The notes under the pieces are model-generated. The model saw nothing but the letters and a program-made list of their open reading frames with translations, was not told the origin of the DNA and ran no database searches. DNA of 24,000 nt from Calothrix sp. HK-06. GTDB lineage: Bacteria; Cyanobacteriota; Cyanobacteriia; Cyanobacteriales; Nostocaceae. This document shows, piece after piece, positions 5,289-12,607 of this stretch (positions are counted from its first letter, which is position 1; every line of letters begins with the position of its first letter). Position numbers and translations under genes: made by a program. The stretch covers positions 1,749 through 25,748 of the forward strand of contig MRCD01000119.1 of assembly GCA_001904745.1 (NCBI GenBank). The letters run 5' to 3'.

Positions 5289-5599
5289 TGATTATGTGGA
5301 GTAGATTGACTTTCTGGAGTGTTTTTGCGGCATTTATTTTGAATATTTTGCAACCAGGGTACATGCAATTTTATGACGTGCGTAAACCAATGCTTGCTCT
5401 TTTAACTAATTTGAAAGTGCCAGCGACTAAGGAAGCAAACCAATCTCAAGAAAATGCGGCTAAAACACCTGAGTCAAGTTCTACTCCACCACCAACTCCC
5501 TCACCAACTCCTAAATCTACGTGTCAACCACCAAAGAATGATTACGACCGAATACTTTTCGCGCAAGGAATAGGAGAATGTAATGCGTCTGGTGATTGA
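5288..5599 (+). CDS. small membrane protein with P/T/S-rich tail (103 aa)
   Basis: N-terminal TM (FWSVFAAFILNIL), then SSSTPPPTPSPTPKS. Coupled on both sides. Confidence 0.55.
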   Translation: MIMWSRLTFWSVFAAFILNILQPGYMQFYDVRKPMLALLTNLKVPATKEANQSQENAAKTPESSSTPPPTPSPTPKSTCQPPKNDYDRILFAQGIGECNASGD

Positions 5600-6449
5600 T
5601 TTAAGTCGTACTCATAACGATAATGATGAATTGGTTGTTGATAATCAGTTAGTAGATACGGATGATACTGATGTTGAAGATAGTAGCGGTAAATGGTTGT
5701 TGCCACTTTTAACCTGTGGTTTAGCGATTGCGATTGTGGTTAGACCAGTATCCGAGTTAGTTAAAACGGCGCCACCCGTTGTTTGGCTACAAAGTCAAGT
5801 TGGTACATTAACATCCACGTCTAATCAGCAAACTTCAATAGTTGCTAATCGTTTATATGCGGCAATGCAGCGTAAAGGCTATCCAATAGCTAAAGGTAAG
5901 GGTGAAACTAACATTATTTATGTACGTGGTGGGGATATTAACGGTCAGCCTACAGGTAATCGTATAAATGAATGGTCAGACGCGCGCTTTGTGTTGATGT
6001 TCCGTGGTGGGCAACCATATATTGCGGGGAAGTGGAAAGCGACGATTAAGCCAGGGCTTCCTGCAATTAGGAATCCATTAGGTAAGCGTGGTGCGGCGTT
6101 TATTGAGGATGGTTACTACAAAGCATGGCGCCTGGGTATTCATCAAGGGATATTTGGAAGAAGAGAGCGTGGTTTGGTGCAAGTGGCGCCAGTAAACTTT
6201 CGTCGTGATGTTAATCGTGATGGAAATGTATCGGGCGAGCCAGTACAAAATGGAATGATTGGGCTTAACCAGCATTCTGGTAGTAATAATAGAGAGGTTG
6301 ATAAAACTTCATATGCCTGTCTGGTAGCACAGTCAAGTGAAGGTCACTTAGAGGAATTTGTACCATTACTTGAAAACGACCCTCGTTACAAAACGAATTC
6401 GCAGCATATGTTTGGGACTGCGATATTAAGTATTGGCAACTTACGATGA
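5583..6449 (+). CDS. membrane-anchored putative cell-wall-active enzyme (YkuD-like His...Cys signature)
   Basis: Short N-terminus (MRLVIDL...) plus a TM helix, then a domain ending in GLNQHSG-x10-SYACLV. This resembles the H...S-x-G-C catalytic pattern of L,D-transpeptidase-fold proteins. The family assignment is tentative. Confidence 0.6.
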   Translation: MRLVIDLSRTHNDNDELVVDNQLVDTDDTDVEDSSGKWLLPLLTCGLAIAIVVRPVSELVKTAPPVVWLQSQVGTLTSTSNQQTSIVANRLYAAMQRKGYPIAKGKGETNIIYVRGGDINGQPTGNRINEWSDARFVLMFRGGQPYIAGKWKATIKPGLPAIRNPLGKRGAAFIEDGYYKAWRLGIHQGIFGRRERGLVQVAPVNFRRDVNRDGNVSGEPVQNGMIGLNQHSGSNNREVDKTSYACLVAQSSEGHLEEFVPLLENDPRYKTNSQHMFGTAILSIGNLR

Positions 6450-7078
6450 AATTAGTAGTCGATTTTGAAGGTGGTAGTAACCCACGTCCGAAACGGGGTA
6501 AAAAGCAATCGAGTGGTAAATTAGGTGATGCCAATTGGCAGACAGCAGTATTAACGGGATTGATGGTTGCTGGAATAGTAGTTCCTCAATTTTCAGCAAC
6601 ATTGAAAGGGATTTTTGCTTTATCTGATAGCGCAGTAGAAACAACAGAAATCAATACTGGCTCGGAATCTGTTAAGTTTCGACTACCTGTAGCAAAGGGT
6701 GTATCTACTACATCAGAGTATGGGTGGCGTACTCACCCAATTACAGGGCAACGTAAGTTTCATGCAGGTCTTGATTTTGGTGCGGCGTATGGACAACCTA
6801 TTTATGCAGCGGCGCCGGGAGTAGTCACCTTTGCTGGAGAGAAAGGTGGATACGGCAATACTGTAGAGGTTAAGCATAATAATCGCGAATCAACATTATA
6901 TGGACATGCAAGTAAATTGATGGTGAGTGTTGGGCAACGAGTAGCACAAGGGCAGGTAATTGCACTTGTTGGTAGTACAGGATTTTCAACGGGTCCACAT
7001 TTACATTTTGAAGTGCATATCAACGGGCAACATACTAATCCCCGACCATTTTTAGGTAATCAAATAGCAGGTAGGTAA
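6446..7078 (+). CDS. membrane-anchored M23 family metallopeptidase
   Basis: HAGLDFGAAYGQPIYAAAPGVV...GYGNTVEVKH...GSTGFSTGPHLHFEVHING carries the HxxxD and HxH motifs of M23/LytM peptidases. N-terminus MKLVVDF... plus a TM helix. ATGA overlap with the upstream gene. Confidence 0.9.
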   Translation: MKLVVDFEGGSNPRPKRGKKQSSGKLGDANWQTAVLTGLMVAGIVVPQFSATLKGIFALSDSAVETTEINTGSESVKFRLPVAKGVSTTSEYGWRTHPITGQRKFHAGLDFGAAYGQPIYAAAPGVVTFAGEKGGYGNTVEVKHNNRESTLYGHASKLMVSVGQRVAQGQVIALVGSTGFSTGPHLHFEVHINGQHTNPRPFLGNQIAGR

Positions 7079-7079
7079 T

Positions 7080-8045
7080 ATGGTTGAGAAATTAGTACTA
7101 GGAGGAATAGCTGGGAGCGTAATAGGTGTTGGTATTGCGTATGGTTTTGCGTCATTACCATGTGGTTTAGTTTCAAAACCTGCGGATAAAGTATGCTACG
7201 TGCGCGCGTTTAATAAATCATTAGATGCGTGGAAGATTGGGTGTTTGGGTGGGGTAATAATTGGGTTAACACTTAGTAATAGTAATAAGCAGCGTCGATT
7301 TAAGTTTCAGCCCATGCATTTATCAATAGTAGGTATTTTGGTATTAGTAGGGGCTGTTGCAGCTAATAATAAATCGCTTGGATTTGGAATTACTAATACA
7401 CAATCACTGTTTCAACTTAATAACACTAACAATTTATCTCCTAGAATGAGCGCATTTCTTGCCACGATAAGATGGGCAGAAACGGGTACAAGTGATAAGT
7501 CGAGTTATAATAAATTAGTGTTTAATGGCACTTTTAATGATTTTTCGGCTCACCCTAAGATTAAACAATGCGCTCCAATAAATGGAAAACGTGTTTGTTC
7601 AACTGCTGCTGGTGCTTATCAAATGTTAGATATATCTTGGAATGATGTGGCGCCAAAATTAGGGTTGAAAGATTTTACTCCACCTTCGCAGGATAAAATG
7701 GCAATTGAATATATTCGCCGTAATAAAGCTATAGATGATGTGGAGTCAGGAAATATTGAAATGGCATTTTGTAAGGTAGGAAAGGTATGGGCTAGTTTGA
7801 TTTGTAATAATTATAATCAAAATCCATGGACTACAGAGGAGTTAAAAAATTACTATAATAAACAATTAATTGCTGCGGGTGGTGAGCCAGTCAGCGGTAA
7901 GTCCAGTTGGCGGGAATGGTTTTCTTTCCGGAAAGCTCGCCACGGGGAGTACTCCCTGTGGCAGACTTTCCGCCAAACTGGCGAACCCCAAAGGGGTGGA
8001 AGCTTCTTTCCCGTTGGACTGGCGAACCCAAAGGGAGGTAATTAA
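7080..8045 (+). CDS. membrane-anchored lambda-R-type lytic transglycosylase (GH104-like); 3' end may be an artefactual extension
   Basis: FLATIRWAETGT...YNKLVFNGTFNDFSAHP...STAAGAYQMLDISWNDVAPKLGLKDFTPPSQDKMAIEYI...VWASL aligns motif-for-motif with phage lambda R (FLDMLAWSEGT...DYSDHP...STGAGRYQLL...LGLKDFSPKSQD...IWASL). Three N-terminal TM segments. The last 53 or so codons translate the GC-rich element at 7880-8040. Confidence 0.88.
   Translation: MVEKLVLGGIAGSVIGVGIAYGFASLPCGLVSKPADKVCYVRAFNKSLDAWKIGCLGGVIIGLTLSNSNKQRRFKFQPMHLSIVGILVLVGAVAANNKSLGFGITNTQSLFQLNNTNNLSPRMSAFLATIRWAETGTSDKSSYNKLVFNGTFNDFSAHPKIKQCAPINGKRVCSTAAGAYQMLDISWNDVAPKLGLKDFTPPSQDKMAIEYIRRNKAIDDVESGNIEMAFCKVGKVWASLICNNYNQNPWTTEELKNYYNKQLIAAGGEPVSGKSSWREWFSFRKARHGEYSLWQTFRQTGEPQRGGSFFPVGLANPKGGN
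7880..8040 (+). other. GC-rich, highly structured element at the lysozyme/FtsK gene junction
   Basis: Nested hairpin: GGAAAG(7930-7935)/CTTTCC(7966-7971) encloses GCCACGGGGAG-TA-CTCCCTGTGGC (7939-7962). The outer arms are CCAGTTGGCGG(7903-7913)/CCGCCAAACTGG(7970-7981). A competing CTTTCC sits at 7924-7929. Direct repeats ACTGGCGAACCC(C)AAAGGG at 7977-7996 and 8018-8035. Two forward frames stay open across the element. Confidence 0.5.
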
Positions 8046-8047
8046 TT

Positions 8048-10216
8048 ATGGATAGCAATTCATTAATACTTTATGTTAATAACGCGCGCGCTGCTGGGTA
8101 TTCAAGTCAGCAAATAATTGAAACAGTTGAAGCAACTGGTAATATTGCCGCTACATCATATGTTAGTAGTTTAGTTCAGCAACTTGAGTTTCGTGATAAG
8201 CTTTGCCGAACTACGATTAAGTATGACCAGAACTTTTTATATGAAAGTGTATACATTGCAGTGCTTTCGGGCATGGCTAATGATGATATCCTTCATACTT
8301 GTGGAGAATATTGTGATGTAGAAGATTATGCTTTTTGTAAGTTAGCTTTGCGCCATATTTTAGTCCATCGTGTGCCAAGCGAAGCGGAAATAGCAGTGTT
8401 TTTGATGGATTTAAAAAATAAATTTACTCAAATTGATAGCGTATTTAATTTAATTAAAGAAACAATTAATGAACACTATTTATCATTAATACGTAAAGCA
8501 TTTTTAGAGTGGTATATATATCCAGCATTTGTACAAGGTCAAGATATTAATTTCTTTTTATCGCTTGCTGATAAATGTGGTGATATTAGAATTGCTGATT
8601 ATTGTCGGCGTACTGCTGACAAAATATCAATACAAAAGCATGGCATTCGGTTAGATTTAAATGTATCTGGAAGTTTGGCTTCATTAACTGTTGATGAAAA
8701 TACGGTTCCTGTTGCCGAAATTCAGGCAAATCCAAATCAACCTTCAATTGACGAAGCAGGCAAGTTACTAGTTGAGGTACTAAAAGATTTTAAAATTGAA
8801 GCCGAGTTGGTTGGCGCCGTTAGTGGTCCAACGTTTAATCGTATCGAAGTTAAGCTTGGTCGTGGAGTTAAATTCGGCAGCGTCGCGAATTTTAGTGACG
8901 ACTTGATGCAGCAACTCGGTGATGAGTTGGGTATTGACAAGGCGCCGATGATTAGCAGTATTAAAGGTCGGACGGCTTTTGATATACCTAAATTTAACCG
9001 TAAAACTGCTTATTTTAAAGATTATGCTGATTTTGATACCCAAATTGATATTCAAAAAATATTGATACCTGGTGGCATTGATGTAAATGGTCAATACTAC
9101 AAAATCAACTTTTGTGATGACAATTCGCCGCATATGATGGGTGGTGGTCGTACTCGCAGTGGCAAGTCCCAGTTTTTAAAAAGTGGGATTATGTACTTGG
9201 CTCGACGTTATCCTCCGTCTGTAGTACGTATGGTGCTATCTGATGTAAAGCGTGTTACATTTGGTAAATTTAAGAATTTGCCGCACTTAATAGGCGACGT
9301 TTGTAAAGATGCCAAATCTACGGCTGATATGTTGGATTTTTTGGTAGCGGAAATGGAATTACGCTATCAGGAGTTTGAGCGATGGGAGCATAGTGGTATT
9401 GAAAACATAAACCAATATAATAAATTGCATTTTGATAATCATGTAATGCCTCGTATTATTTGTTGGATAGATGAAATATCTGAATTATTGAGTGACGAGG
9501 GCTATAGTGCGCGTATAGAAAAGTCACTTGCTTCGTTGTTACGTAAAGCTGGAGCTGCGGGTATACATGTTGGTGCGTACACACAGCGACCTGATGCTGG
9601 CGCATTAAAACCACAGATTCGGTCAAACTTTCCTGCAAAAACAGCGTTTGCAGTTGCGAGGCCAGAGGATAGTAAAATAATTTTAGGCGACCCCAATGAT
9701 GAGCGTGCTAAAGATTTGTTAGGTAGAGGTGATTTTATATTGCGTACTCCTGAAGTTGATGTACGGTTGCAGGCTTTGTACCTCGACGATGCGGATGATA
9801 TTGAGTATTTTAATCAAATAACGGAGGAAATAATAAATGCTACTGACCCATATACAGCATGGGATTCAGGGTTGAGTTTTGATGAATTTATTGAACAACT
9901 GTATTTGAATCAGGATACCACTGACCCTCATGCTGTTGATAGGATTGTCACCAATAATCAAATCAAAAATGGGAAAAACAAAACTAATTTTAATTCATCA
10001 TTTCAATTTAGTGTGGAATTAGATGCTCGTGCTAAGGACACAATAGAGACGTTATGGCGCCGGGGGTATAATGCAAATCAAATTACGGCTGAGGTGTTTG
10101 GTAAGTCAAAGGGAGGACGTGACGGTGATAGGAAATTTGAGAAAAATAAGAAGGTGGTAGAAAAATATATTTCTGATTTGAGTACCAATAAGGGTGAGGT
10201 GGACGATGATATATGA
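8048..10216 (+). CDS. FtsK/SpoIIIE-family DNA translocase (TraB/Tra-like)
   Basis: GPTFNRIEVKLGRGVKF, Walker A PHMMGGGRTRSGKSQ, VRMVLSDVKRVTF...LPHLIGDV...EMELRY, Walker B ICWIDEISELL, and AGIHVGAYTQRPDAG...IRSNFPAKTAFAV...DSKIILG...LLGRGDFIL all follow the FtsK motor-domain pattern. No obvious N-terminal TM region. GGGAGG RBS. Confidence 0.9.
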   Translation: MDSNSLILYVNNARAAGYSSQQIIETVEATGNIAATSYVSSLVQQLEFRDKLCRTTIKYDQNFLYESVYIAVLSGMANDDILHTCGEYCDVEDYAFCKLALRHILVHRVPSEAEIAVFLMDLKNKFTQIDSVFNLIKETINEHYLSLIRKAFLEWYIYPAFVQGQDINFFLSLADKCGDIRIADYCRRTADKISIQKHGIRLDLNVSGSLASLTVDENTVPVAEIQANPNQPSIDEAGKLLVEVLKDFKIEAELVGAVSGPTFNRIEVKLGRGVKFGSVANFSDDLMQQLGDELGIDKAPMISSIKGRTAFDIPKFNRKTAYFKDYADFDTQIDIQKILIPGGIDVNGQYYKINFCDDNSPHMMGGGRTRSGKSQFLKSGIMYLARRYPPSVVRMVLSDVKRVTFGKFKNLPHLIGDVCKDAKSTADMLDFLVAEMELRYQEFERWEHSGIENINQYNKLHFDNHVMPRIICWIDEISELLSDEGYSARIEKSLASLLRKAGAAGIHVGAYTQRPDAGALKPQIRSNFPAKTAFAVARPEDSKIILGDPNDERAKDLLGRGDFILRTPEVDVRLQALYLDDADDIEYFNQITEEIINATDPYTAWDSGLSFDEFIEQLYLNQDTTDPHAVDRIVTNNQIKNGKNKTNFNSSFQFSVELDARAKDTIETLWRRGYNANQITAEVFGKSKGGRDGDRKFEKNKKVVEKYISDLSTNKGEVDDDI

Positions 10217-10928: not shown

Positions 10929-11123
10929 ATGATAACGCCCTTTATATTGGGTAATCATGAAATGAAGAATGGAGCGGTTACTGCTACCTATGTTGATAAG
11001 GAAGGTAGACCAACTCAAAAATTGGGAGAAGCAAAGGTATTCGATGCTCGTAGTGATGCAGAAATGTATGCTGTTCAGAAAGACATTGAAGCAAACGTAA
11101 TTATAGTGAAAGGAGAAAAGTAA
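10929..11123 (+). CDS. small soluble hypothetical protein (64 aa)
   Basis: GAGGAGG RBS directly upstream. TAATG overlap with the next gene. Confidence 0.55.
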   Translation: MITPFILGNHEMKNGAVTATYVDKEGRPTQKLGEAKVFDARSDAEMYAVQKDIEANVIIVKGEK

Positions 11124-11833
11124 TGACAGTGTGTAATGTCGTATTTAAGAGAACTCCCAAGTACGAAGAGATTCTGGATAAGTTGATGGGTGGAGCTAAT
11201 GTATATTTACAAGGCGCCACATGTACAGGTAAAAGCACGCTTGTTAGAGAGTTACAGTTCGATTTGGAGACAAGATATGTTTATGTGAGTGTACCAAGGG
11301 ATGCAAATTACTCAGTTTTATATAAAGTTTGTGAGAGTATAGCTGCACAACTGAATATTGAAGTTGAGTCTAAGTGTGTGGGTGGGGTTTCACCCGAAGG
11401 TACGTTACAAGCAATTAAACAGCTTGAGGAAAGAGTACTGTTTGTATTTGACGAAGTTGGCAATATTCAAAATTGCCACCCAGATGCGATAAAAGGAATA
11501 AACAAGTGGCTGCATGATTTATCTATGGTAGATGGTTGTCAAGTTGTGGTGGCATCTCAGACTACATTGGATAAGGCTTTGCCTCATTTCTTTGCTAATA
11601 AAAGTTGGCGAAATGTATTTGACATAGTTAGTTTAGACGATGTGAGTGCGGATTGCGAAAGTGTTGATATAAAATTAGCAATGCAGCAATGGATGAAACG
11701 GGAGTTATTAAAGGGTAAATATACAGAGTCTTTCCTGAAATTAATATCGATGGGTATTAATGGTGAACTAGAGTTACTCGATGCCATTCGTGCTGCAAGT
11801 TCGGTTGAATATTACAATATTAATGTGAGGTAA
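11123..11833 (+). CDS. P-loop (AAA-type) ATPase
   Basis: Walker A GATCTGKST and Walker B-like VLFVFDEVG. 236 aa. GGAGAAAAG RBS. Confidence 0.7.
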   Translation: MTVCNVVFKRTPKYEEILDKLMGGANVYLQGATCTGKSTLVRELQFDLETRYVYVSVPRDANYSVLYKVCESIAAQLNIEVESKCVGGVSPEGTLQAIKQLEERVLFVFDEVGNIQNCHPDAIKGINKWLHDLSMVDGCQVVVASQTTLDKALPHFFANKSWRNVFDIVSLDDVSADCESVDIKLAMQQWMKRELLKGKYTESFLKLISMGINGELELLDAIRAASSVEYYNINVR

Positions 11834-12511: not shown

Positions 12512-12607
12512 TGGTAATCCAATTGGTGGACGTGTCTTGAAAACTTTTGTGCGAGGAAACCTCGACACACAAAGTTTCCGCTAGCAAGTTCGATTCTTGC
12601 TACCACT
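12510..12607 (+). ncRNA. tRNA-like element (aberrant tRNA-Phe(GAA)-like with a 20-nt insertion)
   Basis: 7-bp acceptor AGTGGTA(12510-12516)/TACCACT(12601-12607). Canonical T-arm GCAAG-TTCGATT-CTTGC (12584-12600). D-arm-like TCC-AATTGGT-GGA. GTGTC(12532-12536)/GACAC(12564-12568) stem with loop start TTGAAAA (anticodon GAA at 12539-12541), followed by the 20-nt insert 12544-12563, which contains a CGAGG-AAA-CCTCG hairpin. 15-nt variable region. No encoded CCA. Confidence 0.45.

Follow-up and report, generated by a model that had tools for sequence, protein, structure and literature searches.

Nested small dispersed repeats as the probable origin of a structured GC-rich stretch between a lysozyme-like and an FtsK-like gene in Calothrix sp. 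HK-06

Between a lysozyme-like gene and an FtsK-like gene of Calothrix sp. HK-06 lies a short stretch of DNA packed with hairpins and direct repeats, and the question it raises is whether such structure serves the gene downstream or was brought to the junction from elsewhere. The window, that is, the whole 24,000-nt stretch analysed here, covers positions 1749-25748 of contig C23 in the HK-06 assembly (G000; 9.99 Mb, 38.8% G+C). It includes a run of ORFs that abut or overlap, encoding an endolysin-like protein (5583-6449), an M23 peptidase (6446-7078), a membrane-anchored lysozyme-like protein of the endolysin type (7080..8045, plus strand, 321 aa; phrog_90 endolysin match over residues ~101-268), an FtsK/SpoIIIE-family ATPase of 722 aa (8048..10216, plus strand; Pfam FtsK_SpoIIIE at 3.4e-21, FtsK_alpha at 1.1e-9) and, last in this gene order, a RusA-like protein. 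The FtsK-like gene is a neighbour of the repeat cluster and lies outside the element. At the junction itself, a GGAGG Shine-Dalgarno sequence (8034-8038) stands before the TAA stop of the lysozyme-like ORF (8043-8045), and the ATG of the FtsK-like gene (8048-8050) follows two bases after that stop, all on the plus strand. Two Calothrix plasmid records, plasmid1 of Calothrix sp. NIES-4105 (AP018291, 395 kb) and plasmid p1 of Calothrix sp. PCC 7716 (AP025019, 385 kb), are collinear with this region of the window over 3.9 kb at 91-92% identity, and the stretch GGTAATTAATTATG (within 8034..8050) is identical in all three plasmids. Our analysis points, with a probability of roughly 87%, to small non-autonomous dispersed repeats, of a kind typical of heterocystous cyanobacteria, that are nested in three levels and sit at the junction as a tolerated passenger.

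The GC-rich stretch and its unusual structure, both pointed out in the original prediction, were confirmed. Positions 7881-8033 have a GC content of 58.2%, against 33.8% in the 500 nt on each side, and all the structural features listed earlier were found in the sequence at the coordinates given for them. A near-perfect palindrome is centred at 7950/7951, with arms of 22 nt (7929-7950 and 7951-7972) that are 82% complementary; outer arms read CCAGTTGGCGG(GAA) at 7903-7916 and (TT)CCGCCAAACTGG at 7968-7981; CTTTCC occurs at 7924-7929 and a second time at 7966-7971; the direct repeat ACTGGCGAACCC(C)AAAGG is found at 7977-7994 and 8018-8035, the two copies being 41 nt apart; and GAAGCTTC occupies 7999-8006. 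When 7880-8060 was folded as RNA, the minimum free energy (MFE) was -78.3 kcal/mol, compared with -59.1 +/- 4.1 kcal/mol for 200 dinucleotide-preserving shuffles, none of which (0/200) folded as well (z = -4.72). A second open frame had also been proposed at 7870-8055. The frame exists, and it carries little weight as evidence of coding, since the insert can be read without a stop in four of six frames and an open frame there is consequently uninformative.

Comparison of the sister plasmids showed the same junction in three states. In the PCC 7716 plasmid the site is empty, reading ...ATTACTTTAGGGGGTAATTAATTATGG where the window carries 156 extra nucleotides (junction sequence ...AAACAATTAATTACTTTAGGGGGTAATTAATTATGGATAG), and the flanks of the insert are 94-95% identical between the two. 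Its lysozyme-like ORF ends ...KQLITLGGN* (NYYNKQLITLGGN*) with no tail, its TAA is followed two bases on by the FtsK-like ATG in the same stop, Shine-Dalgarno and start context as in the window, and its FtsK-like protein is 94% identical to that of the window. The insertion site is G-rich and lies three codons before the lysozyme-like stop. NIES-4105 displays a third state, in which both copies of a repeat unit that we call module A are present (relative to the window, the first 95 nt of the insert carry two substitutions and the last ~40 nt a few), the hairpin at 7930-7971, a second unit called module B, is missing, CTTTCC occurs once, and a separate block of 45 nt stands further on. Homology of the lysozyme-like protein had been said to end near nucleotide 7884, and its last 53 or so codons had been taken for read-through of a non-coding insert. 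Both statements were borne out: the phrog_90 match stops at residue 268 of 321 (~nt 7884), and the net difference from PCC 7716 is 156 nt, or 52 codons. Furthermore, more distant lysozyme-like ORFs, compared at FtsK-like protein identities of 56% and 47-50%, all end a few variable residues past a conserved ...YY(N/Q)(K/Q)QL. Because the tail is absent from PCC 7716 as well as from these distant homologues, it represents inserted DNA. Two further in-frame indels of 24 nt with mini-hairpins, at ~10960 and ~11139, also separate the plasmids from the window.

The GC-rich stretch is made up of three small dispersed repeats nested three deep and holds no locus-specific device. With the inner pieces taken out, both module A copies of the window align to their family (alignment A2, rows 1-2). 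The 5' part of the outer module A (GGTGAGCCAGTCAGC; 7881..7895, plus strand; row 1) has a left arm that pairs with 8010-8021 in the MFE fold, and its boundaries are uncertain by 1-3 nt owing to G-rich microhomology. Within the loop of this copy lies a complete inner module A (7896-7993, plus strand), composed of a 5' part (GGTAAGTCCAGTTGGCGGGAATGGTTTTCTTTCC; 7896..7929; alignment A2) and a 3' part (GCCAAACTGGCGAACCCCAAAG; 7972..7993) that holds the first direct repeat; the covariance model recovers the inner copy as one match with a 42-nt insertion (G000:C23:9644-9742, equal to 7896-7994 of the window; 50.9 bits). Module B, a 42-nt hairpin (GGAAAG-CTCGCCACGGGGAGTACTCCCTGTGGCAGA-CTTTCC; 7930..7971, plus strand), is nested in the 3' stem strand of the inner module A, and its 3' CTTTCC repeats the host CTTTCC of 7924-7929. 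The outer copy resumes at 7994..8033 (plus strand) with a loop remnant, the CCGTTGGACTGG arm and CGAACCCAAAG, a part that contains the second direct repeat as well as GAAGCTTC and that was matched by nhmmer at C23:9744-9783 (model positions 18-57, E = 2.3e-5).

Every conspicuous feature can be placed within this arrangement, the boundaries of the module inserts being ambiguous by 1-3 nt. Each of the two direct repeats corresponds to the 3' end of one module A copy, the outer arms (7903-7916/7968-7981) are the stem of the inner module A, and CTTTCC-GGAAAG...CTTTCC is the junction left when module B inserted into its host. The mutually exclusive CTTTCC/GGAAAG pairing had been read as a switch; it is better seen as that nested-insertion junction, as CTTTCC occurs once in NIES-4105, where the hairpin is missing. 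Nesting of module A within module A was also found on two other HK-06 contigs, C168 and C176, at the matching loop position (after ...GGCG).

Module A proved to be a dispersed family in its own right. The unit, of 55-57 nt, consists of GGTGAG, a covarying hairpin and then CGAACCCGAAGGG with a CCC-GAA-GGG mini-hairpin; as collected from its genomic contexts it reads GGTGAGTCCAGTTGGCGGTGTCGGTTTCCGTCCCGCCAAACTGGCGAACCCGAAGGG. Its 12-mer GAACCCGAAGGG occurs 21 times in the HK-06 genome against 0.3 expected. In a RNAalifold analysis of 22 module A copies, 11 of 15 consensus pairs kept their pairing through changes on both sides, and some copies have wholly different stem sequences with an unchanged architecture. 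A search for other copies across the genome, as called for by the original prediction, yielded dozens of dispersed module A copies. The covariance model built from the 22-copy alignment (R1) gave at least 44 matches in HK-06 and at least 27-51 in each of four genus mates, these counts being lower bounds, as the best 150 of more than 1000 candidates were scored. R1 matched all five sampled genomes of the HK-06 family and, elsewhere in the order, at least 11 of 115 genomes belonging to other families. In addition, BLAST identified a 94.7%-identity copy on a plasmid of Nostoc sp. UHCC 0302 and another inside an annotated primase CDS on plasmid2 of NIES-4105. Twenty of the 24 full-length copies in HK-06 lie outside long ORFs, and intergenic copies are 49 to 60 nt long. 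Relative to the upstream gene their orientation is mixed (14 same, 9 opposite), which lends no support to a role at the transcript level. A 21-nt sub-unit (CAAACTGSCGAACCCAAAGGG) was seen in tandem on contig C242. A literature search for the exact words GAACCCGAAGGG and GGTGAGTCCAG returned no relevant paper.

Module B, which follows the pattern CG-N-AAAG-CTCGCCAC...GTGGCAGA-CTTT-N-CG, is rare: HK-06 has four copies (the others on C157, C158 and C192), and the module was found in 7 of 61 genomes of the family, that is, in six besides HK-06. Its arms covary as GCGAAG/CTTCGC, GCAAAG/CTTTGC, GTAAAG/CTTTAC and, in the window copy, GGAAAG/CTTTCC.

Further filled and empty sites show how such units are placed. 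First, the NIES-4105 homologue of ORF 5583-6449 carries a 57-nt module A in frame midway along its length, at the site CGTGGT^GGGCAA, which is empty in both the window and PCC 7716. Second, an IS transposase gene on HK-06 contig C212 contains an in-frame copy of 57 nt and has an empty paralogue on C211 (site AAGTTT^GGACAG). Third, a 55-nt copy on C177 causes a frameshift in a GMC-oxidoreductase-like gene whose empty paralogue is on C111 (site GTCGAT^GGTGCT). Across all five filled/empty comparisons the module units stand immediately 5' of GG, and any duplication amounts to at most 2 nt (GG).

These sites bear on the possibility that the repeat is a classical MITE or REPIN which a genome-encoded IS or RAYT (Y1) transposase moves in trans. 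The short, structured, dispersed and mostly intergenic copies, polymorphic between filled and empty states, are what such an element would leave, and the class of dispersed repeat was correctly named when a MITE was offered as an alternative; the terminal inverted repeats and target-site duplication of a MITE are what module A does not share. Its ends, GGTGAG...GAAGGG, do not repeat each other in inverted form, inspection of the unit ends revealed no terminal inverted repeats that would match an IS, and the duplication is limited to the 2 nt given above. Moreover, the unit begins with GGTGAG in place of a GTAG or CGTC tag, and PF01797 (Y1/RAYT transposase) had no match in the HK-06 assembly, which is 99.98% complete, while control genomes did match. 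Two module A copies in genome G002, 3 kb apart and inverted relative to each other, were considered as possible flanks of a RAYT or mobilising gene and rejected: they lie inside two copies of an IS transposase gene. We therefore consider a conventional MITE or REPIN unlikely. RNA intermediates were reportedly proposed by Elhai et al. for the spread of small dispersed repeats (SDRs).

Tentatively, module A may represent an as yet undescribed family of ultra-small mobile elements of Nostocales, which insert 5' of GG without a recognisable transposase, prefer the loop of existing copies of themselves and are repeatedly tolerated in real genes as 19 codons in frame. We regard this as possible rather than probable. 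If it were true, the record of strict multiples of three at this operon junction, 111, 42, 45, 57, 24 and 24 nt, would show selection for translational coupling through translated repeat DNA.

At the lysozyme/FtsK junction, then, one module A occupies the G-rich site three codons before the lysozyme-like stop, a second module A lies in the loop of the first and, in the lineage of the window, the 42-nt module B lies in the stem of the second module A. The host frame meets no stop codon within the insert, whose overall length is divisible by three. The lysozyme-like ORF would therefore run on to the original TAA, two bases before the FtsK-like ATG, and translational coupling would be preserved. 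Hairpins, direct repeats and alternative pairings alike would arise from the family architecture together with the insertion junctions, and the repeat DNA at this locus would be a tolerated passenger without a dedicated function.

The three independent length changes at the junction, namely 111 nt (the shared pair of module A copies), 42 nt (module B) and 45 nt (the NIES-4105 block), are all multiples of three, which hints at selection on the reading frame and at a tail that is not entirely neutral. This can be taken as a hint only, as there are three events, the chance that all of them fall in frame is ~1/27 and four of the six frames are open anyway. Plausibly, selection against frame-breaking insertions keeps termination beside the FtsK-like ATG. 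A secondary effect of the element on mRNA stability or coupling may also occur.

A stronger claim would be that the nested structure is a cis-acting regulatory RNA, modulating mRNA stability or the flow of ribosomes into the FtsK-like start and thereby gating translation. The very stable fold described above, the 3' mini-hairpin that adjoins the Shine-Dalgarno sequence, the change from GGGGG to GGAGG made by the element and the frame-keeping of all three length changes, hence of termination 2 nt before the ATG, are in keeping with such a role, as is a start codon that is predicted to be somewhat less accessible (computed unpaired probability 0.40 in the window and 0.52 in NIES-4105, against 0.64 in the empty PCC 7716). 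Yet the Shine-Dalgarno sequence, on which gating had been predicted to act, is about equally accessible with the insert (computed unpaired probability 0.53 in the window, 0.54 in NIES-4105) and without it (0.49 in PCC 7716), and the PCC 7716 plasmid, which lacks the element, agrees with the window in these genes and in the spacing from Shine-Dalgarno to start. The insert also lies in a translated ORF, so that ribosomes would melt the structure, and the same units occur at dozens of unrelated sites in both orientations to their neighbours. An Rfam 15 scan of 7700-8250 (E up to 10) gave chance matches only, the best, to an unrelated viral family, reaching 21.7 bits where the gathering score is 90, and a terminator and promoter scan detected nothing in the element. 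These findings make a dedicated regulatory RNA quite improbable.

G-rich recognition words are known for DNA translocases, including the Streptomyces TRS (GACCCGGA) and the SpoIIIE SRS (GAGAAGGG). That the repeated GAACCCNAAGGG forms a clt-like transfer locus bound by the neighbouring FtsK/TraB-like translocase, like the 8-bp TRS for Streptomyces TraB, is hardly credible despite its place directly upstream of the FtsK-like gene, its two direct repeats 41 nt apart and a motif superficially like those words, because the element is absent from the orthologous junction of PCC 7716 with its 94%-identical FtsK-like protein, 'ACTGGCGAACCCNAAGGG' forms the conserved 3' terminus of a family dispersed across chromosome contigs, the family is also present in genomes where the search found only an FtsK of ~36% identity (G021 and G028), Pfam detects neither a gamma nor a winged-helix domain in the 722-aa protein, and about 44 copies in 10 Mb in mixed orientation are unlike a polar guide sequence.

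Reading the stretch as nested dispersed repeats removes a striking structure beside an FtsK-like gene as a lead to a transfer origin or a riboswitch. The empty, filled and differently filled sister plasmids document a fast pile-up of tiny hairpin repeats in Calothrix, and such repeats become translated tails or internal protein segments. For annotation, C-terminal extensions or 19-aa insertions of the form GE(S/P)..GLANP.G or ..RQTGEPEG in Nostocales are to be read as repeat-derived. Furthermore, the filled/empty pairs and the GG-adjacent target offer a starting point for finding the mobiliser of SDR-type repeats.

Several known systems resemble the element to different degrees. The clt locus of Streptomyces conjugative plasmids consists of TRS repeats bound by TraB; the likeness lies in short direct repeats beside an FtsK-like translocase gene on a plasmid, whereas the insert described here is not conserved between sister plasmids, is not plasmid-specific and is part of a genome-wide repeat family. 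Nezha (Zhou et al., 2008; in PMC3184786) is a cyanobacterial MITE of 130-170 nt whose terminal inverted repeats match ISNpu3 and which is flanked by direct repeats. Like module A, it is a mobile non-coding element, of Anabaena/Nostoc, shown through empty and filled orthologous sites, whereas module A has 55-57 nt, lacks ends like those of an IS and shows a duplication of no more than 2 nt. REP/BIME and REPIN-RAYT systems are likewise short GC-rich extragenic hairpins that form mosaic clusters and attract more insertions (PMC3116915, PMC3733652); module A differs from REPIN-RAYT in having no GTAG/CGTC tag, in the lack of a Y1/RAYT gene in the HK-06 assembly and in its insertion inside ORFs. Rickettsia palindromic elements (RPE; Ogata et al., 2000) are among the ORF-fused repeats reviewed by Delihas (2011; PMC3184786), and here the likeness concerns palindromic repeats within genes or extending their 3' ends, with the frame kept and the repeat translated as an extra peptide (PMC3184786). 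RPEs differ in their size of 105-146 nt, their unrelated phylum and their absence of sequence similarity to module A, which is moreover a mostly intergenic family (20/24 full-length copies).

The closest known systems are the SDRs of Nostocaceae, to which the modules are likened by general features and not by sequence. SDR1-SDR8, reportedly described by Elhai and colleagues in 2008, are said to have cores of 21-27 nt, compared with the 55-57 nt of module A, and the host in our case is Calothrix. To our knowledge, no mobilising enzyme of SDRs is known. The SDR work of Elhai et al. (2008) is cited in PMC5861425, PMC4390886 and PMC3116915. Both kinds of repeat are very small GC-rich dispersed units in heterocystous cyanobacteria, with a hairpin backed by compensatory changes (here 11/15 pairs of module A and the arms of module B). 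They also share nesting in their own copies, as in the window with its module A within module A plus module B and on C168 and C176, and presence/absence between close relatives, represented in our analysis by five filled/empty comparisons.

Within the homologue of window ORF 5583-6449 carried by the sister plasmid of Calothrix strain NIES-4105 (L028:2121-3047), a 57-nt copy of module A, the dispersed hairpin repeat (GGTGAGTCCAGCCGCGTGCGGGGGTTTCCCCCGTTGAGCGGACTGGCGAACCCGGAG), sits mid-ORF and preserves the reading frame, and the corresponding site (window ~6010) is empty in both the window and the sister plasmid of strain PCC 7716. In the genome of Calothrix sp. HK-06 (G000) itself, two genes each have a paralogue pair in which one member is filled by module A and the other is empty. 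The first is an IS transposase with an in-frame copy (G000:C212:45067-45123 and C211:154103), and the second a GMC-oxidoreductase-like gene frameshifted by a 55-nt copy (G000:C177:65253-65309 and C111:~227200). A Y1 transposase (PF01797) was not found anywhere in this 10-Mb genome; its assembly is 99.98% complete and comprises 243 contigs, across which IS copies may have escaped assembly.

The association of the nested 42-nt hairpin, module B, with module A is not unique to the window, because a module B copy of a different genus (locus L037, G019:C27:~136827) directly adjoins a module A-like loop sequence (GCGGTGTCAGCTTCTGTCCCGC).

Additionally, a 47-nt stretch (TCTTGAAAACTTTTGTGCGAGGAAACCTCGACACACAAAGTTTCCGC) at window 12535-12581, absent from both sister plasmids, falls within a region previously labelled tRNA-like; ARAGORN called no tRNA in the window or at the corresponding place of NIES-4105.

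Furthermore, module A's 3' part, 21 nt long, occurs as a tandem duplication (CAAACTGCCGAACCCAAAGGG CAAACTGGCGAACCCAAAGGG) at G000:C242:12877-12952, suggesting that the mobile or expandable core of the module may be about 21 nt, as in the small dispersed repeats (SDRs) of Nostocaceae. Two in-frame 24-nt indels with mini-hairpins, situated at window 10960 and 11138-11140, each at the 5' end of an ORF (10929-11123 and 11123-11833), are SDR-sized; both inserts are absent from the window, one (TTCACGTAGTGTCTCCGTAGGAGA) being present in NIES-4105 only and the other (..AACGAAGTTTGCCCGAAGGG) in both sister plasmids.
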